From NCBI GenBank assembly GCA_963545485.1, contig CAUUJG010000004.1, positions 23,186 through 87,185 on the forward strand: 64,000 bases of DNA, written 5' to 3'. Shown here one piece after another: positions 2,279 to 57,315 of the stretch (its first letter is position 1; every line of letters begins with the position of its first letter). The position numbers were made by a program, and so were the translations under genes. The notes under the pieces were generated by a model. The model had not been told where the DNA came from and made no database searches. It worked only from the letters and a program-made list of their open reading frames with translations. The stretch comes from an uncultured Clostridia bacterium (lineage in GTDB: Bacteria > Bacillota > Clostridia > Christensenellales > CAG-917).

Positions 2279-2300
2279 TATTATCCTCTCAATTCTTTTA

Positions 2301-2687: not shown

Positions 2688-2802
2688 CCTTTGTTTTTTC
2701 TTCCTCCATTTTTAAAAGTTCTTCTACAAGTAGTTTCCTAATATATTCCTCAATTTTCTTCTTCATTAATTCTCTTTCTTTTTCATCTTCTTTCCTCTTC
2801 AT
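2668..2802 (-). CDS. Small 44-aa K/E-rich coiled-coil ORF (tentative)
   Basis: ATG at 2802 overlaps the upstream stop (ATGAAATGA). Its own stop overlaps the ATG at 2687 of the next gene. This coupling geometry on both sides is the only support. Confidence 0.3.
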   Translation of the reverse strand: MKRKEDEKERELMKKKIEEYIRKLLVEELLKMEEEKTKDEISLE

Positions 2803-3668
2803 TTCATGCTCTCCTTTTCAATTTGTTCTTTCATCTCCACGTCCACTTTTTCTTTTATATTTTTCATATCATTCTTTAATATGTATCTATCAATGCCGTA
2901 AATCATAGTGTTTGCCAGCCTCATGGCATTATTAATGTTTGTTTTAAATTTCATAATTTCACTATCTGAAAGTTCCACGAACTGTCTCATTAATTTTTGA
3001 TTCATTTCATAATCAATTCCCATATAGCTAAGTATCATTTCTACAGCAGAATCTATCTCTAATTTTTTTATATTAGTAATCGACACATGGTCGATTCCCT
3101 GGTCTTCACATATTTCTAATGAATTAGCTATTGTTATCTGCGTAACAAGAACTTCCATATATTTCTTTTTTGGCAATGTTTCATTTATTTTTATTTCTTT
3201 CTTCTCAATGTCAATAACTGCATCATAAACCGCCGATGGTTCCATCTTTGCTATCTTATATTTTGTCGACTGTGCTTTCACCGCATCCGTAAGTTCATCA
3301 AGTGCATGTATATATGCATCCTGTGCTGTAAATATTTCTTTGTTTAACCCCGATGTCTGCGAGATATCAAAGACATAACCTGTTCTATATCTAGGTTTCC
3401 CATCAGGCCCTCTTTGTTTAAGAATTATTTTTATTCCCTTCTCACCCTTGTTTACCCTTCGATCCAAATTATTCCACTCTTCTAAACATCTCACTCTACC
3501 AACATTCTGCTTTTGTAAGTTTATAAGTATTTGATTCTCTATGCTGTACTCTTTTACGGGCGGCATTCTTTTCAGCATATTCGAATATTTTCCACCTTTA
3601 ATAATTCGTATCAACTCTCTATTTGCTTCTGCAAAAAGTTCATCTGCACTCGTTTCCCTAACGTTCAT
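2799..3668 (-). CDS. ArdC-N-like ssDNA-binding / antirestriction-type protein (no metalloprotease motif)
   Basis: The N-terminal 100 aa (YS.ENQILINLQ....RV..LEEWN.LDRRVNKGEKGIKII) match the ArdC N-terminal (DUF1738) pattern. There is no HExxH in the C-terminal half. Confidence 0.6.
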   Translation of the reverse strand: MNVRETSADELFAEANRELIRIIKGGKYSNMLKRMPPVKEYSIENQILINLQKQNVGRVRCLEEWNNLDRRVNKGEKGIKIILKQRGPDGKPRYRTGYVFDISQTSGLNKEIFTAQDAYIHALDELTDAVKAQSTKYKIAKMEPSAVYDAVIDIEKKEIKINETLPKKKYMEVLVTQITIANSLEICEDQGIDHVSITNIKKLEIDSAVEMILSYMGIDYEMNQKLMRQFVELSDSEIMKFKTNINNAMRLANTMIYGIDRYILKNDMKNIKEKVDVEMKEQIEKESMK

Positions 3669-5965: not shown

Positions 5966-7103
5966 TTTTTATTTTCCTCGCCTTTTCTTTTATTGTCGGT
6001 ATCTTTTCTACAACCTTATCTGTTACTTTCTTAACAACCTTTACTGCACCAACCGTATGGGATATAACGCCAACCGTTCCTGCTGTTGTCGCTCTTATCG
6101 AATGAATTATTTCGTTCATTCCTAAATTGCTCTGCCCCTGCGTTATAATCCCGGAAATCATATAATGTGCATGGACCGCAGCGACTGCTCCTCCAATTAA
6201 AAACAACATTTTTATAAATCCGTTTTTGACTGTTGCTGAATAAAAGTCCATCTTTATAATCTCATTCATGAGCATAAAGAAAACATTCAGTGATATTACT
6301 ATCGCATGAGCCGATATAACCTTTGAGATCATTATTTCTTTTAATGCATTCATTCTTGATCCGTCATCAATAACTCTTGTCGCAACAGCAAATGGTGACA
6401 TCATATACAGCAAGATGACATCGAAAATTCTACGGACAAATAATATTGATCCTATAGTTAAGGTGATAAGAATTATCCCTCCACCAAGTATTGATGCAAA
6501 ATAATTCATTTGCAGCGGGCTGTAATATGCATATATGTCTGCAATGTCTGTATATGATAGTTTCCCTCTTAAAAACATTTTTTCTATTTCTTCTCTGGAA
6601 GCAGGATCTCCTATATAAGCTCCTTCGGAACTTACCAAAAACAATTCGCCTCCAAACCTAATTTCTCCGACAGTCTCCGTATTGAGCATAAGCTTATATA
6701 TCGCCCCAACGATTGTGTTGGAAAGAATTACAAAAGCCATGAGCATAAAAGGTATTAAAAGAAATAATATAAATGACATTAATGCATGCTTTACCAATTC
6801 ACCCCGACTTTGCCGACTCAAATCATCTTTTACAGTGTCTTTAATAATCCTTATTATCAGAAATAAAAACAGCAATGTCGTTGCCATTAGTACTATTCCC
6901 CAAAACACCTTGCTTACATTTCGATCAAATATGAAATGTTTAATCAAATCTTGTGGTTGCTTATCTCCAGATACTGGCTCGAGTCCAGCCAATACCCTAA
7001 ATGTAGATGTTATAAAATCTAATATTTTTAATATCCAAATCTGAATTCTTAAAAGTATTTTTGCTATAAACACTTTAAGGAGTGTCGCATTGTCCGTCAG
7101 CAT
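5928..7103 (-). CDS. Polytopic membrane protein, VirB6/TcpH/PrgH-like T4SS channel component
   Basis: 391 aa with at least 6 predicted hydrophobic helices. It sits between the pilin-like gene and virB4 and overlaps virB4. Confidence 0.55.
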   Translation of the reverse strand: MLTDNATLLKVFIAKILLRIQIWILKILDFITSTFRVLAGLEPVSGDKQPQDLIKHFIFDRNVSKVFWGIVLMATTLLFLFLIIRIIKDTVKDDLSRQSRGELVKHALMSFILFLLIPFMLMAFVILSNTIVGAIYKLMLNTETVGEIRFGGELFLVSSEGAYIGDPASREEIEKMFLRGKLSYTDIADIYAYYSPLQMNYFASILGGGIILITLTIGSILFVRRIFDVILLYMMSPFAVATRVIDDGSRMNALKEIMISKVISAHAIVISLNVFFMLMNEIIKMDFYSATVKNGFIKMLFLIGGAVAAVHAHYMISGIITQGQSNLGMNEIIHSIRATTAGTVGVISHTVGAVKVVKKVTDKVVEKIPTIKEKARKIKNEIHTIYDKGKT

Positions 7104-7104
7104 A

Positions 7105-7380
7105 TTATCCTACCTTATTTGTAACCCACTCCTGCAATATTGGCATCGCTATCTTTAAAGAAACTATAAGAACAAAAATCAGCAAAAACCCTATTATTGC
7201 TCCAACCAAATCTTTCTTTGCTTTCTCTCTCGAATTCTGCTCGTCTGCCTTAGCTACCTTTATTCCAAGAAAAATACAATATATCGTTCCTATTGCCCCT
7301 ATCACTGCTATTAAGGGCCATAAAATTGCATTCACAACTTCCAGGACAGGAACTATCACCGGATTAAAATCTACATTCAT
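7105..7380 (-). CDS. Small two-TM pilin-like (VirB2/TrbC-like) conjugal transfer protein
   Basis: 91 aa with two hydrophobic helices separated by a charged loop (KADEQNSREKAKKD). The stop/start is coupled to its neighbours. Confidence 0.5.
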   Translation of the reverse strand: MNVDFNPVIVPVLEVVNAILWPLIAVIGAIGTIYCIFLGIKVAKADEQNSREKAKKDLVGAIIGFLLIFVLIVSLKIAMPILQEWVTNKVG

Positions 7381-8951
7381 TTCTTCTTCTCCTTTTTGTT
7401 TTTGTTTTTCTTTTTAACAACAAAAAATATACCTACTCCGACAGCAACAACTATTGCCACAACAATAGGAATTACTATTCCTGCCTTAGATTTCTTTTTT
7501 ATAATTTCAAATGTCACTGTATTGATATTTCCAAGATTGTCGATAGCCGTAACTTCATACTTACCAACTTTGTCACAAATAACACCGCTAAAATATTTGA
7601 TCTCTTTACCGTTATATTTCAAAACTGTTTTTATCGTTTTATCAGTGTCAATAACCGCTTTATATCCTTTCCCATTTTGTATCCCAACTATCTTTATATT
7701 TGGTTTCTGATTTATAATTTCAAACTCGCATTTGCTGTTGTTGAAAATTATTCGATATTTCCCCGACTTGCCAAAAACTGCTTTACCTATTATTTTGTCA
7801 CCATTAACTGTCGCCTGAATATCTTCAAAATCATGTGTTATTTCTCGAGATACGCTAGGAACAATTTGAAATCTCACCGTCTTAATATTCCCATATTGAT
7901 CCTTCGCAATAATCTTATACTTTCCAGGACGGACCAACTTGCCTTCGCTTGGAACTGTTTTATCTTCAAGCATTAATTTTATTGATAATTTTTCTTTAGA
8001 GGTAATCTCAACTGAATTGTATATGCCTCCATTTTCAACTCCTGATATGTCTACATCTTTATCTATTTCGAATGATATTTCTGAACTGTTGCCGACCTCA
8101 TCTGTTGCTTTAACTATATATTTGCCAGTTTTGTTAAATGTAGTTTCGGTGTGTCTAACCCTTTCATTGTTAACACTAATGACATCTGCGTTTTTTATTT
8201 TGATTGTCACATCTTGATTTCCTATTTTTTTATAATTCCCCGTTATTTCTGGAGGCGTATTATCAATCTCAAATTTAAACTCTCTCAGAAAGCCATCCGA
8301 ATTGTATAGTTTTACCAAATAGCTTCCATCCTTATCTATTTTTGTCCCACTTAAATACTCTGCTGTAATTATTCCCTTTGTTATTGTTGCCTTTGCATCC
8401 CCTTGATAATTCAGAACAAACATCCCTGCAAACTTACTTTTCTCTATGTTCGCTGTATATCTTGGTTCCGGTTTTGTATATTTATATTTATGTTCCCTAG
8501 ATAGCAAATGTGCCCTATCTGAAATTTCAACAATGTACTCTCCTGAGCGGCTAAATGTGTATCGTAACAAATCAATTTTTACATCTCTAGCGTCTGAATC
8601 TTGCCACATTCTTTCTTTTACACCATCAAACACTCTATATATCGCCATGTTTAATATCGGAACTCCTGATTGTTCAACTATTGTCATTTCAAGCCTCTGT
8701 GTTATTTCATTTTCAAAAAATTCTACTCTTGGTTCCTGTCTCGATATGACTATTTCAAACTTTTTGCTTCTTCCATATCTATTTACTGCCTCAACATAGT
8801 GTTTTCCATTATTTGCCAATTTTGCACTTTCAAGACTTGAAAATGTCTTAAGCAAATTAAATTCAGCATCATAAATGTTAAGATGCGAATTTGGCTCCAT
8901 CATAAAATCAACATCGCTATTGAAATACTTTTTTTGTATCAACACTAACAA
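7377..8951 (-). CDS. Ig-like-repeat surface protein segment with C-terminal TM anchor (probably the C-terminal part of one gene with 8917..11484)
   Basis: 524 aa from a TTG start and no signal peptide. It has repeats with GKY.V.A.D..GN......F.ID and a C-terminal hydrophobic helix plus a KKKNKNKKEKKK tail. Confidence 0.7.
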   Translation of the reverse strand: MLVLIQKKYFNSDVDFMMEPNSHLNIYDAEFNLLKTFSSLESAKLANNGKHYVEAVNRYGRSKKFEIVISRQEPRVEFFENEITQRLEMTIVEQSGVPILNMAIYRVFDGVKERMWQDSDARDVKIDLLRYTFSRSGEYIVEISDRAHLLSREHKYKYTKPEPRYTANIEKSKFAGMFVLNYQGDAKATITKGIITAEYLSGTKIDKDGSYLVKLYNSDGFLREFKFEIDNTPPEITGNYKKIGNQDVTIKIKNADVISVNNERVRHTETTFNKTGKYIVKATDEVGNSSEISFEIDKDVDISGVENGGIYNSVEITSKEKLSIKLMLEDKTVPSEGKLVRPGKYKIIAKDQYGNIKTVRFQIVPSVSREITHDFEDIQATVNGDKIIGKAVFGKSGKYRIIFNNSKCEFEIINQKPNIKIVGIQNGKGYKAVIDTDKTIKTVLKYNGKEIKYFSGVICDKVGKYEVTAIDNLGNINTVTFEIIKKKSKAGIVIPIVVAIVVAVGVGIFFVVKKKNKNKKEKKK

Positions 8952-26958: not shown

Positions 26959-29508
26959 TTAATTTTCGTTATTCTCAAGCTTTTCTTCTTTGTTCTGTTC
27001 TTCCCCTGTCTCATTTGCTACTGATTCAGAAACTTCTTTCTCTAACTCATCCTCATTCGGAGCAATTGCAATAGATGCTATTTTTGCTTCTTCATCCTTC
27101 ATTTTCATTATTCGAACACCTTGTGAAGTTCTTCCAAATCTGCTGATATCGTCTGTGGATACTTTTATCACTATTCCACTATCTGTTATAAGCATGAGGT
27201 CATTCCCTTTTTCAAGTATTTTTAAACTTGCCAAATCTCCAGTCTTCTCATTAAATGTTCCCGCTTTTATTCCTTTTCCTGCTCTTCTCTGCAATCTATA
27301 GTCATCCAATGAGCTTCTCTTGCCATATCCATTTGTCGTTACTGTTATAACTTCTTGCTCTGGATCTTTAATTACTGCTACATCTACCAATGTTTCTCCA
27401 TCATCAAGATCCATCGCCTTAACTCCTCTAGCTGCTCTTCCCATTGGTCGTACATCCTTTTCACTACATCTAATAACATTCCCATTGTTTGCTGCAATTA
27501 TCAATTCATCTTCTCCGTTGGTTAAAACTGCAGATATTAACTCATCATCTTCATTAAATTTGATCGCAATTTTTCCTGTTCTATTAATTTGGTCAAACTC
27601 TTCCAATGGTGTTTTCTTTATCAATCCCTGCTTCGTTGCAAGTACAAGATATTTGCCTGCCGTATCTTCTGGAATTGGTAAGATCGCTTTAATTTTTTCT
27701 TCCTGTCCGATTTCAAGTAGATTTATTATAGCTCTTCCTCTTGCAGTTCTACTTGCTTCTGGAATCTCATATCCTTGTTTTGCGAATGCCTTTCCTGTGC
27801 TTGTAAATATCATATATCTTTGATGTGAATTCCCTATAAAAATATATTCTATGAAATCCTCTTCTTTTGTTTTGTGAGCCGCAACTCCTATTCCACCTCT
27901 TTTTTGGGTCCTATATTCTGAAACAGCCATTCTCTTAATATATCCCTCATGTGACATAGAAATTACAATATCTTCTTCTGGGATCAAGTCTGCTTGATCT
28001 AAATCAAACTCGCCATATGCAAGCTGCGTTTTTCTTGGCACTCCATATTTTTCTTTAATTTCTGTAAGCTCATTACGTACTATCTCTTTTATGTTTTCAT
28101 CTGAAGAAAGAATTCTTTTGTATTCTTTTATTTCTTCTTCCTTTTCATGCTTTTCGTTTTCTATCTTCTCAACCTCAAGTCCCGTCAACCTTTGAAGTCT
28201 CATATCCAGAATTGCTGTTGCCTGTCTTTCAGAAAGGATAAATCTCTCCATCAAATTTGCCATTGCATCTTGTCTATCTTTTGATTTTTTCAACACTTCA
28301 ACAACTTCATCTATATTTGCCAGTGCAATGGATAACCCCTCTAGAATATGTAATCTTTCTTCTGCTCTTTCTAAATCAAATTTTGTTCTTCTAACAATTA
28401 CTTCCATTTGGTGTGATATGTAGTTTGTCAAAATTTCTTTTAGATTTAAAATTTTAGGAACTCCATCAACTAATGCTAGGAAGATTGTCGAATATGTTAT
28501 TTGAAGATTTGTCTTTTTAAATAATTGATTTAATAAAACTTGTGGTGAACAATCTCTCTTCGCAGTTACTGTTATTCTTAATCCTCTTCTATCTGACTCA
28601 TCAAGCAAGTCTGCAATCCCCTCTATTTTTTTCTCTTTATGAAGATCTGAAATTGCAACCACTAATTTTTCTTTATTTATCTGATATGGCAGCTCTGTTA
28701 TTATGATTTTCGCTCTTTCACCTTCCTTCTCCTCAATCTCACATTTTGCTCTTAAAATCACTTTTCCCTTTCCTGTCCTATATGCTTCTCTGAGCCCATT
28801 CCCTCCAAATACGAGCCCTCCTGTTGGGAAGTCCGGAGCTTTTATATATTGCATTAACTCTTCAATACTTAAATCCGCATTATTTAAAAGTGCTATTGTT
28901 GCATCTATTGCTTCTACTAAATTATGAGGTGGAATAGATGTTGCCATACCAACAGCAATACCGTCAGCTCCATTTACGAGGATGTTTGGAAACTTGGATG
29001 GTAAAACTACCGGCTGTTCTCTTGTTTCATCAAAATTTGGATAAAAATCTACTGTCTTCTTATCTATGTCTCTTAACATTTCAAGAGATATTTTGCTCAA
29101 CCTTGCTTCTGTATATCTATTTGCCGCTGCAGGATCTCCATCAATAGATCCAAAATTTCCGTGCCCGTCAATAAGCGGATCATTTATTGAAAAGTCTTGA
29201 ACCAGTCGCACCATAGCATCATAAACGGCTGCGTCTCCATGAGGATGATACTTCCCAAGAACATCCCCTACTGTCGTGGCACATTTCCTATACGGCTTAT
29301 CTGGGGTTAATCCACTTTCATACATTGAATATAAAATTCTTCTATGCACCGGTTTTAATCCATCTCTTACATCTGGTATTGCTCTAGAAATGTTAACCGC
29401 CATAGCATATGATATGAAAGATCTTTTCAACTGATTTTCTATATCTTGATTTACTATCTTTGATTTCTCTAAATGCTCAATAAAATCCATTCCTTTTTCG
29501 TTTGCCAT
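26959..29508 (-). CDS. gyrA: DNA gyrase subunit A
   Basis: [23 protein letters not shown] and the active-site region [10 protein letters not shown]. The likely start at 29508 is preceded by AGGAGG. The ORF is open to 29547. Confidence 0.95.
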
Positions 29509-29524
29509 ACTTTCTCTCTTCCTC

Positions 29525-31438
<1,914 letters not shown>

Positions 31439-31650
31439 TTATGCCTCCCTCTATTTATATATAATAATAAATATAATAATAACAATTTAATATAAATATG
31501 TAAATTGATTGATGTCCAATCTAAAATGCACTGTTCAAACCCCGCTTATTTTGTGTTTGCTTGGCTTCTACGCAATTTTTTTATGTTTCTTGATATATTT
31601 ATCGTTTGTGTGCTTTTTGCTTGTTAAAATGGCATTTTGCATGTCGTTTT

Positions 31651-31666
31651 TGTTTCACATGAAACA
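31651..31666. promoter_or_regulatory. parS-like centromere site TGTTTCACATGAAACA (15 of 16 matches to TGTTNCACGTGAAACA)
   Basis: Read directly in the gyrB-upstream intergenic region. There is a single mismatch at the central dyad. Confidence 0.6.
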
Positions 31667-31847
31667 TTTCCGGTGCTGTTTTTATTTTTATTTTCTATCT
31701 CTTTTAGTTTATCTAGGTATTCTATTCGGCTCGTTTTTTCTTTTGGCAGTATTTTAATTCTCATTTTTGGTGCAATTTTATTGTCTAACTTCATTCTTCT
31801 CGTTTTATATCTTGTCCACTGTTAAATTCTTTTTCGTTTTTACCGTC

Positions 31848-33228
31848 TCATTTGTCAGCCTTTACTTTCCAGTATCCTGTTTTATTAGCCCCTATTCGCT
31901 CTATATATCCATTTTCTTTTAGGAACCTAATATTCTTTTCAACCGCTGTTAACCCCATTCCTACTATTACAGATAGTTGCACTTGAGTCACATTTGGATT
32001 ACTTCTTATTTCTTCTAAAATTTGTCTTCGTCTTGGGCTTAAAAACTTATGACTTTCGTCGCTATATTTTATTTTTTTTTATTTTATTAAACGGAATATT
32101 GACAGCTATCGAATTTTTTCTAAAATCAAATGCTTCTCTTCCATAAATGTCTATAATTTTAGGCACACCTCTTCCTGATTGTTCACTAATGTGCAACTGC
32201 AAAAATATGTCTGATAACTTTTTGTTTATGGGAACCGACTCGCCTCTAAAAAACCCTTCCTTTGTTTGCCTTGGGTCAAGAGTACCTCTTGAAAAAATTT
32301 CTATTCGATTGCTATATACTGTAATCATCGGAGCATTCTCATCCACCCATTTGTTATGAACAAAGGCATTTATAACCGCTTCTCTAAATGCACTCGCATC
32401 AAATAAGGCAATATCCTTTCTCGTTGTAAGTCTTCTTCTTTCGTCTGCTTGTATTATATTTATTACATCTGCATACTCTAATACTTTATCTAAACTCAAC
32501 AGAATGCATGTGTTTCCAAATTCCTTCACAGAGTAAAGAGGGCTTGCTTTTGTTTCCCCACTAAATATAGAAACCCTTACTGGCATATGACTATCATCTG
32601 ACAACAGTTGAGCCATTAGATTATATTTGCCGTTGTTTGTCTGCAGCCCAAGATTTTTCTTAAATGTTTCGTTTTTTAAAGAAATCCCTCTGCCTGCATA
32701 ATAAGTGAAGAGTCTCTCAAATGTTAAATCTTGATATTCTGACTCCATTGTTTCTATTGTTTCTTCTTTGTTTCTTAATATTTCAAAAAGGTTTGCTTCT
32801 CTATCGTGATACTTCGCAATATTAACTTTGCTTGATCCTATTCTAATATATCTTATCCCATTAAATGCGGTTGGGACCTTTTTAGCCATCGGAATTTTTA
32901 ATATAACAAGATTCTTATTGTCAAATTTTACTTCACAAAAAGAGAAAGCAATATCTGGCGTTAACTGCCTTGCAAGATAGTGTTCTAAAGGTTCTCCTTT
33001 AAAATCTGTCCTGTAATCAAAGTTTGTCCCCAAAACTTCATGCGTCTTATCTTTTATTCCCCAAACAAGGTATGCATATTCCTGTCTACAAATTGCAGCT
33101 GCATTTGACAATGCTGATATGTATTCGCCTATCTCATGTGCTTCACACCAGTTTTCCTTAAATTCAAACCATTCTTCCTCTGTTTTATGGTTGATCAAAT
33201 TTTTTATGAGTTCAATATTATTATTCAT
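31848..33228 (-). pseudogene. AlbA_2 (Schlafen-like) + HATPase_c_4 + winged-HTH putative regulator, frame broken at an A9 tract
   Basis: ORF 32062..33228 (388 aa) ends NKIKKNKI*. The adjacent frame continues YSDESHKFLSPRRRQILEEIRSNPNVTQVQLSVIVGMGLTAVEKNIRFLKENGYIERIGANKTGYWKVKADK* (stop at 31848-31850). The switch is at the T9 run 32072-32080. Confidence 0.7.
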
Positions 33229-33231
33229 ACT

Positions 33232-33267
33232 TTTATCCCCTACTTTATCCCCTACTTTATCCCCTAC
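33232..33267. repeat. Perfect 3 x 12-bp tandem repeat (TTTATCCCCTAC; minus strand GTAGGGGATAAA)
   Basis: Read directly. It lies 4-39 nt upstream of the ATG at 33228, and each unit carries an SD-like AGGGGA on the coding strand. Confidence 0.9.
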
Positions 33268-34924
33268 TTTTATTGTAACTCTAATTTGTTGGAATGCAGA
33301 TTTTTTTTATTGCTTTGTTGATATTGTGCCCGTTTTTTGCTTTAAAAAGCCTTACTTTTAGACTTTTTGCTAATCTTTGCTTTTATTTTTTGTCTTAGAC
33401 CATTGTTGTGATCTTTCCATCTATTAAAAAGTGTCCTTCCCTTTGTCTTACAATATTAGTCCTAGTTCTTCTCCAAGCTGTTCTATATGTTTTGGCATTT
33501 TGCAAAAGATCCACCCTGTATTATTTGAACTCCTTGCTTTCCTATAATTATCTATTCTTATCAAAATATTTGATAATCTTGTTTTTTTACTTATAACTAA
33601 TTCTAAACTAGAATTTCGCCGACTCATTACCACTGTTACTGCCGAAATATATATTCTTTGAGGTGTTTTTATAGTGAAAAGTATAAGAAATTGATTAAGT
33701 AATCACTTTGTATTCTTCAATTTTTAAATACGAATTTCTTCTTAAACTTTTTGCATTGTTCGCTTTTCGGTGCTTTATTTGTTTCTCGTCTTCTTGTTTC
33801 TCATTTATTTTTATGTTTTTTATTATATCTAACTCAGTATTTTGTAATTATTTTTTGTTTTTATACCATTTTGTTGTGTTATGGTTTTTTCTTGTTTGTT
33901 TTTTTGGTGCATTTGTTTTTTTTAACTGCCGCCTTTTCTATTTGTTTGTGGCGTCTTGTTGGTGGTTTCTATAATGATTCATTTTGTATCTCACCCAACA
34001 ACTCACTGCTGGAGGTCAACAAAAACATTTCAATAGTTCTTTTTTGGATTGATATGCCAAAATTCACACAGATACACATTCAAAAACCGCCAAATATGGT
34101 TTGTAAATGTCTATATATCGACAATCTCCTTAAGTATCATCTTAATTCTTCAAGGTTTTCCTATTTTTACCAATTCTTGCTGCGGCTTCTTTTTTGGTGC
34201 ACTACACGCCCTGGGGTTTTATGCTTTTTTTTGTTAATTTTGTATTTTTATTACGTCTAACCCTATTATTTAAACTACTTGTTTTAATTTTTGCGATTTC
34301 TGATGTTTTTGCTTTATTTAATATTTATTTTTGGTGCATTTCATAAGTTTTGGAAGCCTCTTTTGCCTTCCATTTTGTATATTTTTTTCTGCTTCTTGTT
34401 GTTTGGGTAAATTTAATCCTTGATCCTTGCACCCGGCGTCATTATTCTTTTTTGATTGTTTTGCTAGAAGCGTTGTTTTTAAGCCATTACTTAAACCCCC
34501 TATCCTATATTTTAGCAGTTTTATGCTTTTGAGTTTTGGCTCTTTTTTTTTATGTAATCTATTCTTGCATTTTTATTCCGCCTTTTCATCCTCAAGCTTT
34601 TTAATTCATTTGTTCTTTATTTTTTATTTGTTTTTGTTTCAACTATAACTAAATCTTTTATTGTTAGTTCTTTTTATTCAACTTAACCAACCCTTTCTTT
34701 TGCAGTCTGTTTCTGTTTTAAAATACCTTACCTTTGTACTCCACAAACACTCTTTCAGTGTGTTTTTCTATTTTTTTGGTGCTTTTTCGTTTTGTTTTAA
34801 AAATTAGAATTCTATCTGTAAAAAGCCCGTTTTTTAGTTTTTTGTTTTAAAATGTCGTTGTTTTTAGACTAATTTTCATTATTCCCTTGATTGATTTGCT
34901 ATTTGTAACGATTTTTTATTTCTT

Positions 34925-35656
34925 TTAGTTTTTAACTTTTGGTGCAAGATGTTTAAAAAATTCCTCGGTTGCTTCTATAATTTTTGAGATGTACTTTTCA
35001 TATTTCGTCATTCCTTTTTGTACGGTTTCTTCAAATGTCTGGTCTGCTGCTTGATCTGCATTATCTGAAACTATTTTTAATGATGCTAGTGGAATATTGT
35101 TCATCTCACATGCCATTGCTATACCTGCTAATTCCATATCACAAATATCTGCGTAAAATGTTTTATTTAAATCTTCCTTTCTTTTTTTGTTTGCTATAAA
35201 TTCATCACCAGAAGCTAAAGTAACTAATTTAAAAGACCCCAGTGTCTTTTCATATATTTTTCCAATCAGATCATTATCTAAATTGAAATATATACCGTTC
35301 CTATTATTATATTGTCCTTTTGGAATATTATTTATTGCCGAAAGATCAAATTGATAATGTGCTACTTTTTCTACAATAACCAAATCATTTAATCCCACTT
35401 TATTGCTTATTGCTCCTACAAATCCAAAATTTAATACTATTTCAACATCAAAATGAGAAATAAGTACTTGCGTCGCTATTGCTGCCCTTATTTCTCCTAT
35501 TCCTGATTTCACTAAATATATTGTGTTATTAATATCTTCTATTTTAATTATTTTTACATTAGAAATTTTACATTCTTCCATTTTCATCTTTTTACCGTAT
35601 TCTTTATATATTGGAAGCATTTCCTCATACATTGCTGTTATTATTCCTATTCTCAT
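34925..35656 (-). CDS. 5-prime-methylthioadenosine/S-adenosylhomocysteine nucleosidase family (PNP_UDP_1)
   Basis: IGIITAMYEE opening, SGIGEIRAAIATQ, and the DMELAGIA....SLKIVSD pattern typical of MtnN/Pfs. Confidence 0.75.
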   Translation of the reverse strand: MRIGIITAMYEEMLPIYKEYGKKMKMEECKISNVKIIKIEDINNTIYLVKSGIGEIRAAIATQVLISHFDVEIVLNFGFVGAISNKVGLNDLVIVEKVAHYQFDLSAINNIPKGQYNNRNGIYFNLDNDLIGKIYEKTLGSFKLVTLASGDEFIANKKRKEDLNKTFYADICDMELAGIAMACEMNNIPLASLKIVSDNADQAADQTFEETVQKGMTKYEKYISKIIEATEEFFKHLAPKVKN

Positions 35657-36452: not shown

Positions 36453-37274
36453 ATGCAAAGAAAAGAAATTAAATATATTTCTATTGATTTAATTGAAAGA
36501 AATAATAATCAACCAAGAAAAACATTCACTGAAGAAGGTCTCGAAGAATTAACAAATTCTATAAAAGAACATGGTATTATTCAACCAATTGTCGTCACAA
36601 AAAAAGGTGATAAATACATGATAATTGCTGGGGAAAGACGCTTTAGAGCTTCTTTAAGAGCAAATTTAACAGAAATACCATGTATTGTTGAATCACTTGA
36701 AACAGTTGAAATTCAAGAAATTGCATTAATAGAAAATTTACATAGAAGAGATTTAAACCCTATTGAAATTGCTAAAAGTATGAAAGATTTATTAGAGTTT
36801 TATGATTTAACTCAAGAAGAACTATCTATTAAAATTGGTAAATCAAGAGCTTACATAGCAAATATGATAAGACTTTTATCTCTTCCTGAAGAAGTACGAC
36901 AAATGTTAATAGAAAATAAGATAACCGCCGGTCATGCAAGAGCTCTTCTGTCTATTCAAAATAAAGATGAATTAATTAGAATTGCAAAAAAAATAGTTGA
37001 AAAAAATTATAATGTAAGAGATGTTGAAAATGAAGTTAAACTTTTTGAAATTAAATCAAAACCTATTTTAAAACAATCTAAAAAACCTCAACAAAAACAA
37101 ACATTAGAAATGAAAAATTTTATAAATGATTTAAAATATGTTTTAGCAACAAGTGTAAAAATAATTGGTAATGAACATAAAGGTCGTATTTATATCGACT
37201 ACTACAGTACAGATGATCTTACAAGAATTGCAAATTTATTAGATTTATATAAACGAAAAATTGAAAATATTTAA
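36453..37274 (+). CDS. parB: ParB/Spo0J/Noc-family partition protein (no adjacent parA)
   Basis: ParB box motifs QPRK and GERRFRA, and an HTH (ELSIKIGKSRAYIANMIRLL). The start abuts the rsmG stop. Confidence 0.9.
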   Translation: MQRKEIKYISIDLIERNNNQPRKTFTEEGLEELTNSIKEHGIIQPIVVTKKGDKYMIIAGERRFRASLRANLTEIPCIVESLETVEIQEIALIENLHRRDLNPIEIAKSMKDLLEFYDLTQEELSIKIGKSRAYIANMIRLLSLPEEVRQMLIENKITAGHARALLSIQNKDELIRIAKKIVEKNYNVRDVENEVKLFEIKSKPILKQSKKPQQKQTLEMKNFINDLKYVLATSVKIIGNEHKGRIYIDYYSTDDLTRIANLLDLYKRKIENI

Positions 37275-37276
37275 AT

Positions 37277-37473
37277 TGTGTATAACTCCATTAAAATGTT
37301 AATAATTTGTGTATAACATTATATAAGTTATCCACAGCCAAAATAGTATATATTGTGGTTTTATTATATTTTAAATACTTTATATTGTGGTTTGTAAAAG
37401 TTATCCACTTGTAAACATGCCTTATATATGTTAATATAATTAATATTATTAATATAAATATAAGGGAGACGAT
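37277..37473. promoter_or_regulatory. DnaA-box cluster plus AT-rich tract (oriC-like) directly upstream of dnaN
   Basis: TGTGTATAA at 37277-37285 and 37308-37316. Perfect TTATCCACA at 37328-37336. TTATCCACT at 37401-37409. A 13-nt direct repeat TATATTGTGGTTT at 37349 and 37381. A nearly pure A/T stretch at 37420-37465. Confidence 0.65.
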
Positions 37474-38571
37474 ATGAATTTTTTCTGCGAAGTAAAAGAA
37501 TTAAAAAATGCATTAAATAAATTGGTAGGTGTTGTTTCTTTAGATAAAACTCAATCTGTTTTAGATCACATAAAAATAATAACTAATGATAAAGCAGTTA
37601 AATTAATAGCAACAGATACAGAAATACAAATAGAAAAAATAATAAATGCAAAAATAAAAAAAGATGGTGAAGGACTTGTTGTAGGTAAAAAGTTTTGTGA
37701 ATTTGTATCAAAATTAACTTGTGATGAAGTTGAAATAATTCAAGAAGAACCAGGCAGTTTAAAAATAAAATATGTTGATTCTGAAACAATTCTTCCATCT
37801 GCAGATGTAAATGAGTTTCCAAAATTAATAGAAATATCAAGTAATGAAAAATTTGATATTAAAATGAATGATTTAAAAGAATTAATAGAAAAAGTAGATT
37901 TTAGTTTATCTACAGAGAGTAATAGACCTGTTTTAAATGGGTGCTTATTTGAAATTGAAAGTGGAAAAATAAAAGCAGTTGCACTTGATGGATATAGAAT
38001 AGCAATAGCAGAATGTGAAATTAAAAATAAAGAAATAAATAAAAAAATATTAATTCATGGTAGACAATTAAGAGAAATAAAAAAGATTTTAGATAATAAT
38101 AATGAAGAAATTACATTTATAATTTCAAATGATAAGATTTGTATTGATCTATTACATACAAAAATAGTTTCTCAATTAATGAGAGAAGAATTTATAAATT
38201 ATAAAAATGTAATACCAGAAGCAAAGGCAACAGAAATAATAATTCAAAAAAAAGAATTTGAAAATACAATACAAAGAGTTGAAGTAATTAATAGGGATGT
38301 TAGAAATAATGATGTTTGTTTAACAGTAAAAGAACAGCATCTTGGTATAAGTGCTCAAAGTCTTTATGGAACTATAAATGAAAAATTACCAGTTTCTGTA
38401 ACTGGGATAGATCAAAAAGTAAATTTAAGTATTAGGTTTATAATAGATTGTTTAAAAGTTATAAAAGAAGAAGAATTAATAATTGGTATTGCAACGAGTA
38501 CAAAACCAGTGTTAATTAGAAATAAAGAAAATACTTGGAATTATATTATTGTTCCAATTATGAAAAAATAA
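37474..38571 (+). CDS. dnaN: DNA polymerase III beta sliding clamp
   Basis: 365 aa with three-domain clamp-like length and conserved blocks (RPVLNGCLFE, LDGYRIA). Confidence 0.9.
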   Translation: MNFFCEVKELKNALNKLVGVVSLDKTQSVLDHIKIITNDKAVKLIATDTEIQIEKIINAKIKKDGEGLVVGKKFCEFVSKLTCDEVEIIQEEPGSLKIKYVDSETILPSADVNEFPKLIEISSNEKFDIKMNDLKELIEKVDFSLSTESNRPVLNGCLFEIESGKIKAVALDGYRIAIAECEIKNKEINKKILIHGRQLREIKKILDNNNEEITFIISNDKICIDLLHTKIVSQLMREEFINYKNVIPEAKATEIIIQKKEFENTIQRVEVINRDVRNNDVCLTVKEQHLGISAQSLYGTINEKLPVSVTGIDQKVNLSIRFIIDCLKVIKEEELIIGIATSTKPVLIRNKENTWNYIIVPIMKK

Positions 38572-38576
38572 TATTT

Positions 38577-39941
38577 TTATATTTTAGATAATTGATTATT
38601 AATATCTGAAATTTGTAGTTTTAATTTTTTATTAATTTTTAAATCATTTTCTATTTTATTTTTAGCATGCATTATTGTTGTATGATCTCTATTAAAGAAG
38701 TTTCCAATTGCACTAAGTGGAATAGAGAGGTTTTGAGAAATAAGATAAATTGCAATTTGTCTTGCAGAAACAATTTCTTGTTTTCTTGAAGATGAGAAAA
38801 TATCTTTAATAGAAATATTAAAATAAGAAGAAACTGTTTCAAGTATTGCATCCTTATTAATACTTTTACCTGAATTTTTTTCATTTATAATTTCAGAAAG
38901 CACTTCAGAAGCCATTTCTTTTGTTTCTATATTTTTCATTAATAAAGAAGATGAAAAGATGATTTTTGTTAAATAACCTTCCATTTCTCTAATACTCATT
39001 GTTTTTGAAATTTCAGCAATATAAAATGCAACTTCATTTGTAAGATTAAAATTTTCTCTCATTGCTTTATATTTTAATATTGAGACTCTTGTTTCAATTT
39101 TAGGAGTTTGAATATCAACAATTAGACCACAGCCAAATCTTGAAGTTAATCTTTCTTCTAAATTAGAAAGGTCCTTAGGAGCTTTGTCAGAAGTGATAAT
39201 AATTTGTTTTTGGGAATTATATAATTTATTAAATAAATTAAAAAATGCTTCTTGAGTAGCTGTTTTATTTGCTAAAAATTGAATATCATCAATCATAAGA
39301 ACATCACAGTGTTTATATTTTTCTTCAAATAAAGATTTACTGTTTTTTTTATCATTGTTAATTGAATTTAAAAAATCATTAACTAGTTCTTCTGTAGTAG
39401 CATAAGTGATTTTAATTTTTTTATTATGTTTAAAAATATAGTTTCCAATAGCATGAAGAAGGTGCGTTTTCCCGAGTCCAACTCCACTATATATAAACAG
39501 AGGATTATATTTTTTTCCAGGGTCAGTAGCAACTGCTTTAGCAGCATTTAGAGCGAAAGAGTTTGAATCTCCACTTATGAAAGAATCAAAAGTAAATTTA
39601 TCAAGGAACGGATTTTTTTTACTTTCAGTGATTGTTTCTTCTTCTATCTTTTCATTTGTGTCAATATTTTTAAGAGAATTATCATTTCTATCTAGAACGA
39701 TTAAAATATTTTCTACTTCATCATTGAAGAGTCTTACAGTATTTAGAATTTTATTTTCATAATTTTCATTCAATGCCTGTTTTACCATTTTTAATTTGGT
39801 AGACAGAATAAAAGTACCGTTTTTAATTTTTATAGGTTTTAAATTTGGATACCAAATGTCACATGCAAGAGAATTAACATCCTTGTCATTTTTTTTGAAA
39901 TAATTCAGCACCTTTTCCCATAAAATAATTAATTCATTCAT
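38577..39941 (-). CDS. dnaA: Chromosomal replication initiator DnaA
   Basis: Walker A GVGLGKTHLL, the box VII region, and the C-terminal DNA-binding signature NRDHTTIMHA. 454 aa. Confidence 0.95.
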   Translation of the reverse strand: MNELIILWEKVLNYFKKNDKDVNSLACDIWYPNLKPIKIKNGTFILSTKLKMVKQALNENYENKILNTVRLFNDEVENILIVLDRNDNSLKNIDTNEKIEEETITESKKNPFLDKFTFDSFISGDSNSFALNAAKAVATDPGKKYNPLFIYSGVGLGKTHLLHAIGNYIFKHNKKIKITYATTEELVNDFLNSINNDKKNSKSLFEEKYKHCDVLMIDDIQFLANKTATQEAFFNLFNKLYNSQKQIIITSDKAPKDLSNLEERLTSRFGCGLIVDIQTPKIETRVSILKYKAMRENFNLTNEVAFYIAEISKTMSIREMEGYLTKIIFSSSLLMKNIETKEMASEVLSEIINEKNSGKSINKDAILETVSSYFNISIKDIFSSSRKQEIVSARQIAIYLISQNLSIPLSAIGNFFNRDHTTIMHAKNKIENDLKINKKLKLQISDINNQLSKI

Positions 39942-40070
39942 AAGAAAAATAATAACATAAAAAGAAATAAAACATCAAAAATGCATATTAAGAGAATACA
40001 AAATAAGTAAGAAAAAAATATAGATGATATAATAAAAAATATTATTAAAAACAGGTTAAACGATATAAAA

Positions 40071-41165
40071 ATGTATATCAAAAAACTAGAAATTAAAAAT
40101 TTTAGAAGTTATAAGCATCTTCAATTGATTCCAGAAAAGGAGTTAAATTTTTTTCTTGGGGCAAATGCAACTGGGAAAACAAATATTCTTGAAAGTATAT
40201 ATTATGCAGCTTTGTTAAGATCGCCAAAAACAAATCAAGACAAAGAAATAATTCGCTTTGGGGAAGAATTTGCAGTAATAAAAATGGAGATAGCAAGAAA
40301 ACATATAACAAATGAGATTAAGATATATTTAAACAGACAGGGTGAAAAAAAAATATTAATAGATGATAACCCAATTAGAAAGATAAGTGACATTATAGAT
40401 AAATTAGGAGTGGTGTTTTTTTGTCCTGAAGATATGACGGTAGTGCAGGGTTCTGCGATTGCGAGAAGAACATTTTTAAATATAGGGATGAGTATTGTGA
40501 GCTCTGTTTTTTATGAAGAATATAACAATTATAAAAAACTTTTACAGCAGAAGGTGTGTTTATTGAAAAAACCAACCATTACACAGGAAACCCTAAAAGA
40601 ACTCGATGCTTGGGATGATTTATTATCAAAAAGTATATTTTGGATTATCAAACAAAGAGAGACATATATTACAAAACTTAGTGAAATAGCAAAAGAAAAA
40701 TATAGAAGGATTTCAAACAATAAAGAAGAATTAAACATATTTTATGAATCAACAATACAAAAACATGCAACAAGTGCAGAAATTTTTGAAGAAATTAAAA
40801 AAGAAAGAGAAAAAGATATAGAATATGGATGTGCAAGAAAAGGTCCACATAGGGACGATATTATATTTAGTTTAGATGGTGTTGATGCTCGTAAATTTGC
40901 ATCACAAGGGCAGCAGAGAACAGTTGCACTTGCATTAAAATTATCAGAACTTGAGCTATATAGCCAATATAGAGGGGAGTCGGCAATATTATTATTGGAT
41001 GATGTTTTGGGAGAACTAGATAGATATAGACAAGAAGAGCTTATAAAAGCAATATATGGACAGCAAACATTCGTTACTTCTACAGAATATGACAAACAAT
41101 TTAAAGGCACAATTTTTGAGGTTTTTAAAGAAAACAACAATTCATTTATAAAGTGCATAAGATAA
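40071..41165 (+). CDS. recF: DNA replication/repair protein RecF
   Basis: Walker A GANATGKTN, signature SQGQQRT and Walker B LLLDDV. Confidence 0.9.
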   Translation: MYIKKLEIKNFRSYKHLQLIPEKELNFFLGANATGKTNILESIYYAALLRSPKTNQDKEIIRFGEEFAVIKMEIARKHITNEIKIYLNRQGEKKILIDDNPIRKISDIIDKLGVVFFCPEDMTVVQGSAIARRTFLNIGMSIVSSVFYEEYNNYKKLLQQKVCLLKKPTITQETLKELDAWDDLLSKSIFWIIKQRETYITKLSEIAKEKYRRISNNKEELNIFYESTIQKHATSAEIFEEIKKEREKDIEYGCARKGPHRDDIIFSLDGVDARKFASQGQQRTVALALKLSELELYSQYRGESAILLLDDVLGELDRYRQEELIKAIYGQQTFVTSTEYDKQFKGTIFEVFKENNNSFIKCIR

Positions 41166-51323: not shown

Positions 51324-52881
51324 TGTTATGTAAGGAATCTTGTGTAAATAGTTTTTTTAGAAGTAAAAAAAGCAAATATATAATCTGTTGATATCAGTCT
51401 ATGTTTAATCTGCTGTATTGGTCAAATGATAATCGTTGAATTTTCGAAAAGTAGCTGATTTTGGGAGTTAGGAAGCAACCCCAAATTTGGGGTTGCTTCC
51501 TAAAACCAGTTGAATAAATTTATTAAAATTATATCTGTGCCAAGTCGGCAACCATTGCCAAGTTTTGATTTCCAGTTAAAGTCTTCATCAATTTGCATTA
51601 ATATTGTCCGATGAGGCGATTTGCTGATTCAACATTTGGGAATATTTTGATTATCTTTTCTCGTTTTCTAATTGAGCAATTAACTCTTTCAAGAGCATTA
51701 TTGGTGAATATACATCTATGAATTTCTGGATTAAATTCCAAATATTTAAAAGAGTATTGATACCAATCATCAAGGGATTTCATTGCCTTATATTGTTTAT
51801 TTGAAACTAGAAAATCCATTAATACATTAGTACATTTATTAACAACTTTATAGTCATTAATTTTCTTAAGTTCTTGCAACATTATGCCTGTTTGTTTTTT
51901 ATATTTATTAGCTACATTATTGAGAGTATTTCGAAATAAATGTGCTGCACAGTATTGCCAACCAGCATTAGGAAACACCTCTTTGATTGCTGTTTTTAAG
52001 CTTTCATTATTATCTGTTATGAAGAGTTTAGGGTTTATTAGACCTTTTTCTTTTAGGCAAGTTAAAAAATTAATATATTCATATTTATTTTCAGAATTAG
52101 CTATTTCATAGCCTAAAATGGTCTTTCTACCATCATTATTATATCCAAGGGCTATATACACACTCTTTTTAACTACCTTATTGCCTTCACGCACATCAAT
52201 ATACATGGCATCTACATGTACATATTTATGTATCCCAACGATTGGTCTTGTCTGAAATTCATCAACATCTGGCTGAATAGTTTTAACAATCTTAGATACT
52301 GTTGAATGAGAAAAACTTGTGCCACAAAGTATTTCTGTTATGTCCTTTATTTTGCGTGTTGAAACCCCATCTAAAACTATTTCAATTAATGTCGCACAAA
52401 ATGCTTTTTCAACCCTATTAAATCTCTCAAAAACAGTTGTTTGAAATTCCCCATTTCTATCTCTTGGAAGTTGCAAATTTAACTTACCAATACTTGTTGC
52501 AAGTGAACGAATATATGAACCATTTCTATATCCTTTACGCTTCTCAGTCCTTTCTGATTTTTTTGCATCTAGAAATGTCTCCATCTCATATTTCATCACC
52601 TCATTCAATATTTTCTGATATAACTCTGATGAGGCAAAAATTGATGAAACACTGGAATTTTTAATATCATCCCTTATTTTTTCAATGTCCACAGAGATAT
52701 TTATTATCCCATCATTATTTTTCTTTTTACTTGTTTCTCCGAAAATGCTATTTTTTTCTTGAGCCATACTCAAACCTCCTATTAATTTTTTCGCAAACTA
52801 AATTATATATTAGGTCTTGAGCTTTTGGCTCTTTTTTTTATTTATCCATTTTTACTTTTACACACAATTATTTACATAATC
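51324..52881 (-). mobile_element. IS256-family insertion sequence (about 1.56 kb)
   Basis: Imperfect terminal inverted repeats: left TGTTATGTAAGGAATCTTGTGTAAA, right (reverse complement) GATTATGTAAATAATTGTGTGTAAA, 19 of 25 identical. Both ends are flanked by the direct repeat GATGATT (51317-51323 and 52882-52888). The target reading frame is restored if the IS and one repeat copy are removed. Confidence 0.8.
51598..52773 (-). CDS. IS256-family (Mutator-like) DDE transposase
   Basis: 391 aa with length and blocks typical of the family (..YVHVDAMYIDVR.., ..FITDNNESLK.., ..QYCAAHLFRN.., TNNALERVN). Confidence 0.85.
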   Translation of the reverse strand: MSMAQEKNSIFGETSKKKNNDGIINISVDIEKIRDDIKNSSVSSIFASSELYQKILNEVMKYEMETFLDAKKSERTEKRKGYRNGSYIRSLATSIGKLNLQLPRDRNGEFQTTVFERFNRVEKAFCATLIEIVLDGVSTRKIKDITEILCGTSFSHSTVSKIVKTIQPDVDEFQTRPIVGIHKYVHVDAMYIDVREGNKVVKKSVYIALGYNNDGRKTILGYEIANSENKYEYINFLTCLKEKGLINPKLFITDNNESLKTAIKEVFPNAGWQYCAAHLFRNTLNNVANKYKKQTGIMLQELKKINDYKVVNKCTNVLMDFLVSNKQYKAMKSLDDWYQYSFKYLEFNPEIHRCIFTNNALERVNCSIRKREKIIKIFPNVESANRLIGQY

Positions 52882-56445: not shown

Positions 56446-56521
56446 GCCTGTTTAGCTCAGTCGGTAGAGCATGCGGCTGTTAACCGCAGTGTCGTAGGTT
56501 CGAGTCCTACAACAGGCGCCA
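56446..56521 (+). tRNA. tRNA-Asn (anticodon GTT), CCA encoded
   Basis: A 76-nt cloverleaf folded by hand: acceptor GCCTGTT/AACAGGC, D arm GCTC/GAGC, anticodon stem TGCGG/CCGCA with loop CTGTTAA, and T arm GTAGG-TTCGAGT-CCTAC. Confidence 0.9.
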
Positions 56522-56684
56522 TTCCAAAAAAACAAATCCATAGCAATAAATTAAAAGAAAAGAATATTTTTGATAGATGTATTTCCTTTAAGTATTAAAA
56601 AGCCTATTATAAGGGATAAGTCTGCAATAAAAAGAAACAGAATGTTTGTCATGTTTTAATGAATAAAAAAAGGAGGCGGTAGTC

Positions 56685-57284
56685 TTGAAGAAAATACCAA
56701 CATTATTTGTAAGAAACTTCATAGATAATCATCAATTTGTTTTAACAAGAGAGGTTAAGTCAGGATTGGAGTGGGTTTTGCAAGGTGAGGGAATCGCAAC
56801 GGTTAAAATAGATGGAAGTTGTACTGCAATTATAGATGGAATTTTTTATAAGAGGTATGATGCGAAACATGGGAAAAGACCTCCAGAAGGGGCAATACCA
56901 TGTGGAGATCCAGATAAAAACACTGGACATTGGCCACATTGGATAAAAGTGAACCCAGAAAACAAAGCGGATCAATGGTTATATGCTGCATATAAAAATT
57001 CAAATCCAGAAAAATTAGAAGATGGCACATATGAAGCCATTGGCTTACACTTTCAAAGCAATCCATATGGCATGACAGAAGACAAGTTAGAAAGACATGG
57101 AATAAGAGAAATTCAAGTCGAGCGGAGTTTTGATGGAATTAAAAAATACCTTGAGGATAATAGTATAGAAGGAATTGTTTTCTGGAAAGATGGAGAAGCA
57201 AAGTGCAAAATAAAAAGAAAAGATTTCGGGATCGCTTGGAATAGAAAAAATCCGAGTAATAAAATAGAGCCTTGCAAAGAATAG
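56685..57284 (+). CDS. Minimal ligase-like nucleotidyltransferase (KxDG motif)
   Basis: 199 aa from a TTG start after AGGAGG. TVKIDGS matches the covalent nucleotidyltransferase motif I of ATP-dependent ligases. No OB or other accessory domain can fit in this length. Confidence 0.55.
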   Translation: MKKIPTLFVRNFIDNHQFVLTREVKSGLEWVLQGEGIATVKIDGSCTAIIDGIFYKRYDAKHGKRPPEGAIPCGDPDKNTGHWPHWIKVNPENKADQWLYAAYKNSNPEKLEDGTYEAIGLHFQSNPYGMTEDKLERHGIREIQVERSFDGIKKYLEDNSIEGIVFWKDGEAKCKIKRKDFGIAWNRKNPSNKIEPCKE

Positions 57285-57309
57285 AAGAGACTATTTAATC
57301 TCTTCTATT
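57280..57309. terminator. Bidirectional hairpin between convergent genes
   Basis: An 11-bp perfect stem AATAGAAGAGA / TCTCTTCTATT with an 8-nt loop. It overlaps the stop of the ligase-like gene and lies just beyond the stop of the 1203-aa gene. Confidence 0.6.
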
Positions 57310-57315
57310 CTAATG

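Follow-up and report, generated by a model that had tools for sequence, protein, structure and literature searches.

Conserved, paired 10-nt boxes in a variable, gene-poor interval between mtnN and gyrB beside the replication origin of an uncultured Clostridia bacterium

Short sites repeated in one direction between variable segments are a feature of integrons and of clusters of attC sites lacking integron integrases (CALINs), for example the Vibrio cholerae repeats, where repeats of ~60–150 nt with two core sites separate segments that are often defence-related or devoid of an open reading frame (ORF). In these arrays the element begins soon after the stop codon of the preceding gene, and CALINs need no adjacent integrase; integrons are hardly known from Clostridia lineages. 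Integration hotspots at gene 3' ends or tRNA genes carry att-core repeats, likewise short direct repeats in one orientation with variable defence cargo between them, and origin-proximal parS/ParB, Noc and parC clusters place short conserved sites in gene-poor DNA beside the replication origin (oriC). Here we describe a locus with likenesses to all of these. It lies between mtnN, which encodes a methylthioadenosine/S-adenosylhomocysteine (MTA/SAH) nucleosidase, and gyrB in a stretch of 64,000 nt (the window) from an uncultured Clostridia bacterium with a low-GC (33%) genome. Eight copies of a 10-nt box, all in one orientation, are arranged as four pairs, two of which are built into ~150-nt elements. 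The boxes and elements are conserved, and they are specific to this interval and to a small clade.

On the plus strand the box reads as a T-tract followed by GGTGC, and it is found at 31667, 31764, 33764, 33901, 34191, 34328, 34773 and 34936, exactly where a preliminary description of this DNA had placed it; no copy in the array has the opposite orientation. On the minus strand, which is the sense strand for the genes nearby, it reads GCACCRAAA, and the consensus over 22 copies is WT-GCACC-R-AAAA with GCACC invariant. The window holds 9 matches to GCACCRAAA against 0.90 ± 0.97 expected, a count that none of 100 dinucleotide shuffles reached, and seven of the nine fall within 31.7–34.9 kb. Within the gaps GCACCAAAA was observed five times, where an order-2 Markov model predicts 0.08. 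Within the 64-kb window the motif is far above its background frequency. Two further copies of GCACCAAAA lie on the array strand at 9149–9157 and 9540–9548, 391 nt apart inside an Ig-like gene of a conjugative element; they are probably due to chance, since ~0.9 matches are expected in the whole window.

Relatives were collected by GyrB and nucleosidase searches of a large protein database, from which ~40 contigs of the same and a sister species were fetched. This database was the sole source of close relatives: GyrB scans of GTDB representatives and JGI metagenomes returned best identities of 71% and 59%, and the nearest GTDB representative found was a Christensenellales metagenome-assembled genome (GyrB identity 71%). 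The relatives group as follows.

Lineage A (L164–L173; the mtnN side of the window is of this type): 1.78-kb gap, AlbA_2 gene, 0.41-kb gap
Lineage B (L174–L192): a single gene-free gap of 1.8–1.9 kb, no AlbA_2 gene
Lineage C (L201): as lineage B, with an additional 1.15-kb insertion holding a BAAT_C-domain gene
Sister species (L163/L194; GyrB 92% identical in amino acids): ~13 kb of defence genes in the mtnN–gyrB interval
Distant relatives (L001, L199/L200; GyrB 71–76%): a gene-free gap of 2.2–3.8 kb upstream of gyrB with 3–4 parS sites

The eight boxes are common to lineages A and B, with order and orientation unchanged, and lineage C keeps all of them. The sister species has six boxes, on a single strand and all intergenic within the mtnN–gyrB interval. 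The copies had been described as irregularly spaced; instead they form four pairs in the window, at 34945/34782 (p1), 34337/34200 (p2), 33910/33773 (p3) and 31773/31676 (p4), with linkers of 97–163 nt. Spacing within pairs is similar in lineages A, B and C and, where a counterpart exists, in the sister species (163/163/153/150 nt for p1, 137/137/138 for p2, 137/129/126 for p3 and 97/95/95/73 for p4), whereas spacing between pairs varies (445/286/255 and 290/339/337 nt in A/B/C). Box 1 is identical in lineages A, B and C, and box 2 stands at the same distance from it in lineage B, with flanks that are 44–47% identical. Pairs p2 and p3 are paralogous elements of ~150 nt with conserved internal boxes AAGTAGTTTAAATAA and TTAGAYRTAATAAAAATA; in p2 the internal boxes are AAGTAGTTTAAATAA and TTAGACGTAATAAAAATA, and the first of them, AAGTAGTTTAAATAA, is identical over 15 nt between the window's species and the sister species. 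Searches with nhmmer recovered p2 at E = 3e-23 to 8e-23, with orthologues in lineages B and C and the sister species, and p3 at E = 3e-17 to 2e-15 (p3 of A versus p3 of B, z = 7.7). The p2/p3 profile has exactly two matches in every genome of the species and in L163, the one sister-species contig that spans the mtnN side; elsewhere in the window and in 160 unrelated gyrB loci it has none. Similarly, 2.2 Mb of gyrB neighbourhoods from other organisms contain only one pair of boxes 90–180 nt apart. In IMG/VR, unit-specific patterns had no match and a loose pair pattern gave seven hits, about the number estimated from chance; blastn returned no phage or plasmid match, and literature searches only unrelated papers or primer sequences.

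The features of the interval and the adjoining genes are listed here by position. A gap of 0.4 kb separates gyrB from the AlbA_2 gene, and one of 1.7 kb separates the AlbA_2 gene from mtnN.

26959–29547, minus strand: gyrA
29525–31438, minus strand: gyrB
31476–31504, minus strand: likely gyrB promoter (TTTACA, 17 nt, TATTAT, with an upstream TG), within the well-conserved ~230 nt upstream of gyrB
31651–31666, no strand: parS-like palindrome TGTTTCACATGAAACA, one mismatch from the 16-bp consensus TGTTNCACGTGAAACA, adjoining box 8
31668–31676, minus strand: box 8, GCACCGGAA, second box of p4, abutting the parS-like site
31765–31773, minus strand: box 7, GCACCAAAA, first box of p4, 78 nt past the AlbA_2 stop codon
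31848–33228, minus strand: SLFN_AlbA_2/HATPase_c_4/wHTH gene (AlbA_2 gene), cargo of slot s6
33229–33759, no strand: filler upstream of AlbA_2 (5' part of slot s6), without similarity to s6 of lineage B
33760–33914, minus strand: pair unit p3, the second ~150-nt copy, from box 5 (33902–33910) to box 6 (33765–33773, GCACCGAAA)
33911–34191, no strand: inter-pair filler s4, 281 nt, no conserved ORF, lineages A and B not alignable (z = 1.7)
34189–34343, minus strand: pair unit p2, ~150 nt, from box 3 (34329–34337) to box 4 (34192–34200)
34338–34773, no strand: inter-pair filler s2, 436 nt, no ORF, lineages A and B not alignable (z = 2.1)
34774–34782, minus strand: box 2, GCACCAAAA, second box of p1, 163 nt from box 1
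34925–35656, minus strand: mtnN
34937–34945, minus strand: box 1, GCACCAAAA, in the last codons of mtnN, first box of p1

The boxes persist in DNA that has otherwise diverged to near the level of chance. Ungapped 45-nt flanks of the boxes are 22–60% identical between lineages A and B against ~34% expected at random, and four-fold degenerate sites of gyrB are saturated between the species (52% identity), while GCACC is intact in 22 of 22 copies across four lineages. Within populations, 8 of 70 core columns are polymorphic compared with 30% of non-A background columns (Fisher p = 4.5e-4), and five of these eight stem from one 65-nt deletion in L174. On these patterns the boxes are under purifying selection.

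The DNA between the pairs behaves differently. Between lineages A and B all inter-pair segments are non-homologous (z = -1.2 to 2.1), whereas the pair units align (z = 3.3 and 7.7) and the region upstream of gyrB does so strongly (z = 47); the flanking genes are 87% (mtnN) and 94% (gyrB) identical, with 64–80% identity at four-fold sites. The mtnN–gyrB interval is a variable slot for foreign genes in the window's species and its sister, and in the window it is almost empty. Lineages B and C have no AlbA_2 gene. What fills the slot in the sister species is a PDC-S01 AAA_14/DUF4143 gene accompanied by a type II restriction enzyme and a methylase, and further by a type I restriction–modification (RM) system with RhuM. 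The transposon insertion in lineage C (L201, 8132–9286) carries a hydrolase gene on the opposite strand, has 42% GC and replaces 24 nt of lineage-B sequence; its ends are 17-bp terminal inverted repeats, TAGACCTGTTYGATAAC, which are found only in L201 and are unrelated to the boxes. Distant relatives have DnaA boxes (in L001) and no GCACC boxes in their gap, and its presence there shows that a large non-coding region beside gyrB is old in the clade. Ancestry around the slot is mosaic: mtnN DNA of the window matches lineage A at 96–98% identity and lineage B at 87%, while for gyrB the figures are 91% with A and 94% with B and C. With mtnN A-like and gyrB closer to B and C, a recombination breakpoint lies within or beside the interval.

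In lineage A the AlbA_2 gene is intact in most strains (459 amino acids), fragmented in L169 and L170, and split in L168 by an insertion sequence (IS) of the DDE_Tnp_1 type, unlike the IS256-family element of the window. The copy in the window is frameshifted by a run of nine A at ~32072–32080, where relatives such as L164, with its intact 459 amino acids, have eight; the extra A may be genuine, through slippage or as a pseudogene state, or it may be an error of assembly. Directly upstream of the start codon, at 33232–33270, the perfect 12-nt tandem repeat GTAGGGGATAAA (minus strand) occurs three times, each copy holding the Shine–Dalgarno-like AGGGGA. Repeat number ranges from 3 to 5 among strains (five in L166, four in L171 and L173), and the tandem repeat may be a contingency locus.

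Most of the stretch is non-coding DNA, changing as fast as neutral sequence or faster. As had been reported, it holds no credible ORF: the only long ones are Phe/Leu-rich and on the plus strand, six-frame Pfam (E ≤ 0.1) and three-frame PADLOC scans of spacer translations found nothing, tblastx against 160 related gyrB loci gave low-complexity noise only, and strain indels in the spacer are not multiples of three. A single blastn match among these 160 loci, in L039, is A-rich low-complexity coding sequence and was set aside. Small Lys-rich ORFs predicted by gene callers in relatives vary from strain to strain. Small ORFs starting from the box (ATG-CAC-CAA-AAA) and hydrophobic plus-strand peptides were rejected, as their frames and start codons differ between paralogues and lineages. 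The T-richness noted in the preliminary description is real, but it is not special to this stretch. On the minus strand the gap has base frequencies of A.50, T.21, G.17 and C.12, and four-fold sites of neighbouring minus-strand genes have A.485, T.27, G.17 and C.08; T-richness of the plus strand is the genome's ordinary leading-strand A>T bias, somewhat stronger in the gap (AT skew 0.40 versus 0.29 at four-fold sites). No 10–11-bp A-tract periodicity was found, and curved DNA was rejected.

A decayed gene array, one of the earlier suggestions, found no backing: no frame holds a domain remnant, translated comparison with related loci gave no similarity, and the region is not explained by remnants of pseudogenes. 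Part of the filler could nevertheless be DNA decayed beyond recognition, because the interval is a variable gene slot in relatives. A broader version of this idea holds that the boxes have no present function and that the motif is a relic of old duplications or decayed genes, surviving by chance or low local mutation. Its appeal is that p2 and p3 are clear duplicates, that filler composition equals that of neutral sites, that the AlbA_2 gene is decaying in several strains (frameshift, IS, fragments) and that a box can be deleted. We consider it quite unlikely, given that all 22 copies of GCACC are intact between random flanks while synonymous sites are only 52–80% identical, that core columns show a polymorphism deficit (p = 4.5e-4) and that no pseudogene remnant turned up; C and G are moreover the rarest bases on the box strand, so retention by chance is improbable.

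Other repeat classes fit poorly. A CRISPR array requires regular repeats of 23–50 nt, whereas here the conserved unit is ~10 nt and spacings run from 97 to ~2000 nt. An origin as miniature inverted-repeat transposable elements (MITEs) or IS-derived repeats was dismissed, as the pair units lack terminal inverted repeats and there are only two p2-like copies per genome region, none elsewhere in the 64 kb. Sigma-54, sigma-B and extracytoplasmic function (ECF) sigma factor promoters, CIRCE, dif/Xer sites, tRNA 3'-end mimicry and the ends of Tn7 and IS200/IS605 do not fit in spacing, symmetry or required hairpins.

If the region encoded a long, structured non-coding RNA or several small RNAs, this would agree with a large, gene-free region of conserved length and with pair units of 100–165 nt, the size of small RNAs. 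The absence of known RNAs had been noted before and is borne out here: Rfam gave no significant match in window or relatives at gathering or relaxed thresholds (E ≤ 10 on the window), its only hit being RAGATH-30 inside the AlbA_2 gene (20 bits, where the gathering score is 59.5; E = 1.3), and a tRNA/tmRNA search with ARAGORN found only a distant tRNA-Asn. Six units fold no better than their shuffles (z from -2.3 to +0.7), and the array is not a described structured RNA; no terminators were found, and a sequence that is 50% A has almost no pairing potential. A structured RNA is very improbable on these grounds, and of the long non-coding transcript proposed earlier only an unstructured read-through form remains as a rival.

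That rival becomes relevant where the pairs are seen against the genes. Whenever a pair follows a gene, its first box is found at the gene's end or a short way past it: it overlaps the 3' end of mtnN in the window's species, in agreement with the earlier remark that a copy sits at the end of the nucleosidase gene, and starts after the stop codon by 8 nt for mtnN in the sister species, 34 nt for PDC-S01, 36 nt for hsdR and 78 nt for AlbA_2. In two sister strains with differing gyrB-side cargo (hsdR versus RhuM), the sequence they share starts ~14 nt past the first box in the pair nearest gyrB. The box could act at the RNA level, GCACCRAAAA in read-through transcripts of mtnN or cargo serving as a processing, stability or 3'-end signal or as the site of an RNA-binding protein. 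All boxes lie on the sense strand of the flanking genes, and the distance of the first box from the stop codon (8–78 nt, or overlap with mtnN) suits such a signal, as does the lack of an intrinsic terminator after mtnN; promoter-like and terminator-like sites, the latter counted over 15–35 kb, are at chance level. In most p2/p3 units a conserved TATAAT-like box precedes the second box by 44–53 nt and would fit transcription there. It is degenerate in p2 of lineage A and in the sister species, and was rejected as a promoter because it is degenerate in some lineages and has no good -35 element. The box occurs at no other gene end in the 64-kb window and so is not a general signal; secondary structure, covariation and Rfam hits are also lacking. 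We regard an RNA-level signal as unlikely.

Our preferred, tentative reading takes the boxes as scaffold or boundary sites of a cassette-exchange hotspot whose recombinase would lie outside the window, a possibility we raise with reserve. The boxes would act on DNA as fixed sites that frame the slot, with foreign genes placed between pairs: AlbA_2 in the window, PDC-S01 and RM systems in the sister species. The most likely mechanism would be a site-specific recombinase, not encoded in the window, that exchanges what the slots hold by acting at the boxes. The reading is suggested by contents that differ wholly between lineages while the pairs persist, by genes that end at or near pairs and by the one junction at a box. 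By analogy, integron/CALIN arrays and integration hotspots with repeated att cores would come closest to this arrangement in how it works, and it lacks the defining features of both. Likeness to the hotspots extends to the first repeat overlapping the 3' end of mtnN and to the junction of variable and shared sequence within ~14 nt of a box.

The differences are equally specific. In attC sites the R''/R' ends are inverted repeats that fold into a hairpin, the core is GTTRRRY and the number of sites follows the cassettes; the boxes here are direct repeats without folding or a GTTRRRY core, and their number is fixed at four pairs in lineages A, B and C. An integron also has an IntI tyrosine recombinase and attI at its head, and no IntI was found in the scanned ORFs of the window. 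At att-core hotspots an integrase or excisionase is expected and none was seen here; the BAAT_C insertion is not at a box, pairs are fixed so that gain or loss of cargo leaves the repeat number unchanged, and some inter-repeat segments are only 97–163 nt long.

Several observations weigh against exchange at the boxes. Pair count is constant whatever the cargo, neither AlbA_2 nor BAAT_C adding a pair; as pair number does not follow cargo, the pairs belong to the chromosome and not to cassettes. The only insertion with visible ends, that of BAAT_C in L201, carries 17-bp terminal inverted repeats of its own and sits in filler, not at a box. No cassette was gained or lost within lineages, among 10–19 sampled strains each, and the array looks static over short spans of time. 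Each pair is a direct repeat, with neither inverted repeat nor hairpin, unlike known simple recombination sites. Pfam scans of 30 larger window ORFs (small ORFs were not scanned) found no recombinase or integrase, and the other large window ORFs match genes whose Pfam families in related contigs include no integrase. The filler could be unalignable through fast indel turnover in poly-A-rich DNA instead of replacement. Finally, L174 has lost box 2 through its 65-nt deletion and two strains carry point changes in box cores, so single boxes are dispensable.

Some of these points suit a rival in which the boxes are bound by a protein that recognises their sequence and organises or regulates the DNA near the origin, foreign genes merely accumulating in permissive filler. 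Candidates would be a centromere-like or nucleoid-anchoring array that supplements a single parS, or a regulator of the gyrBA operon. Pair number and order are fixed regardless of cargo and intra-pair spacing is kept, as expected of such sites. Position also matters here. The preliminary description had placed the region at the coding-strand switch, but the switch and the cumulative GC-skew minimum lie at ~35.7 kb. Divergent from mtnN follow rsmG, a ParB/Noc-like gene, dnaN, dnaA (minus strand) and recF, and DnaA boxes cluster at 37277–37409 with the ParB-like gene on one side and dnaN on the other; with the cluster there, the array sits 2.4–5.7 kb to the left of oriC and outside it. No DnaA box (TTATCCACA-like) with ≤1 mismatch occurs in 31439–34924, and an oriC/DnaA-box cluster was discarded as an identity for the array. 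The earlier suggestion of protein-binding sites tied to the origin keeps the constraint on the boxes in its favour and loses DnaA boxes as their identity, oriC being 2.4 kb away.

The parS-like palindrome at 31651–31666, the only such site, is kept in lineages A and B and lies ~210 nt upstream of the gyrB start codon. That box 8 abuts it favours a DNA-binding role, as do the 3–4 parS sites in the equivalent gap of distant relatives (with DnaA boxes in L001) and a ParB/Noc-like gene without parA 1.5 kb away; conserved sites beside oriC, a box abutting a parS-like site and relatives with parS clusters in the same gap are the traits shared with parS clusters. The boxes are nevertheless asymmetric, while ParB and Noc sites are palindromic, and they do not resemble parS, NBS or DnaA boxes in sequence. 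The boxes stand hundreds of bases apart and are not contiguous repeats, and spacing of 100–450 nt is unlike the direct-repeat centromeres of plasmids. There is no A-tract phasing for a curved-DNA scaffold, and gene ends close to the first box of a pair are left unexplained. A DNA-binding array is a somewhat doubtful candidate.

Returning to cassette exchange, a stronger form of that reading would make the locus a previously undescribed exchange system of gut Clostridia, analogous to an integron platform, with fixed double-stranded sites bounded by direct repeats beside oriC and a recombinase encoded elsewhere; we hold it to be doubtful. Defence genes would then move in and out of defined slots in the mtnN–gyrB interval. 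Should the boxes serve for exchange or landing, they would form a compact, fixed-address platform by the origin for acquiring defence genes in an uncultured and widespread gut Clostridia lineage; cassette platforms would exist outside the integron paradigm, and the 10-nt core with the ~150-nt unit could be used to search metagenomes. If they are instead binding sites that organise the chromosome, the lineage would have replaced most of a parS cluster with another kind of site. Either way, the locus is a clear case of short functional elements surviving in DNA that is free to drift. Interpretations in the preliminary description are in part supported; new beyond it are the arrangement of the boxes in pairs, the finding that other lineages and the sister species have kept them, the nature of the interval as a cassette slot, and the parS-like site. 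Within the 64-kb window, the box was found at no gene end outside the array.

The origin itself has an unusual layout over 36453–41165, in the order rsmG, ParB/Noc-like gene, DnaA-box cluster, dnaN (plus strand), dnaA (minus strand) and recF (plus strand). The ParB/Noc-like protein (gene at 36453–37274) has 273 amino acids and no parA beside its gene, and its best NCBIfam match is Noc at 235 bits, below the cutoff. In a relative with 75% GyrB identity, parA–parB lie elsewhere and the gyrBA block is inverted relative to mtnN–rsmG.

Elsewhere in the window, a block of conjugative-element genes at 183–15383 (minus strand) ends beside mnmG. Its members include a BspA-type leucine-rich repeat protein, a VirB4/TraG-like ATPase (3665–5965), Ig-like surface proteins (7377–11484), a VirD4-type coupling protein (11501–13684) and a LexA-like S24 peptidase (14784–15383). 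An IS256-family (Mutator-type) transposase gene at 51598–52773 (minus strand) lies inside an otherwise plus-strand region of glycogen metabolism. At 56446–61770 a tRNA-Asn gene (56446–56521) is followed by several ORFs without a Pfam match, one of them encoding 1203 amino acids (57316–60927, minus strand), and these may form an island at the tRNA.

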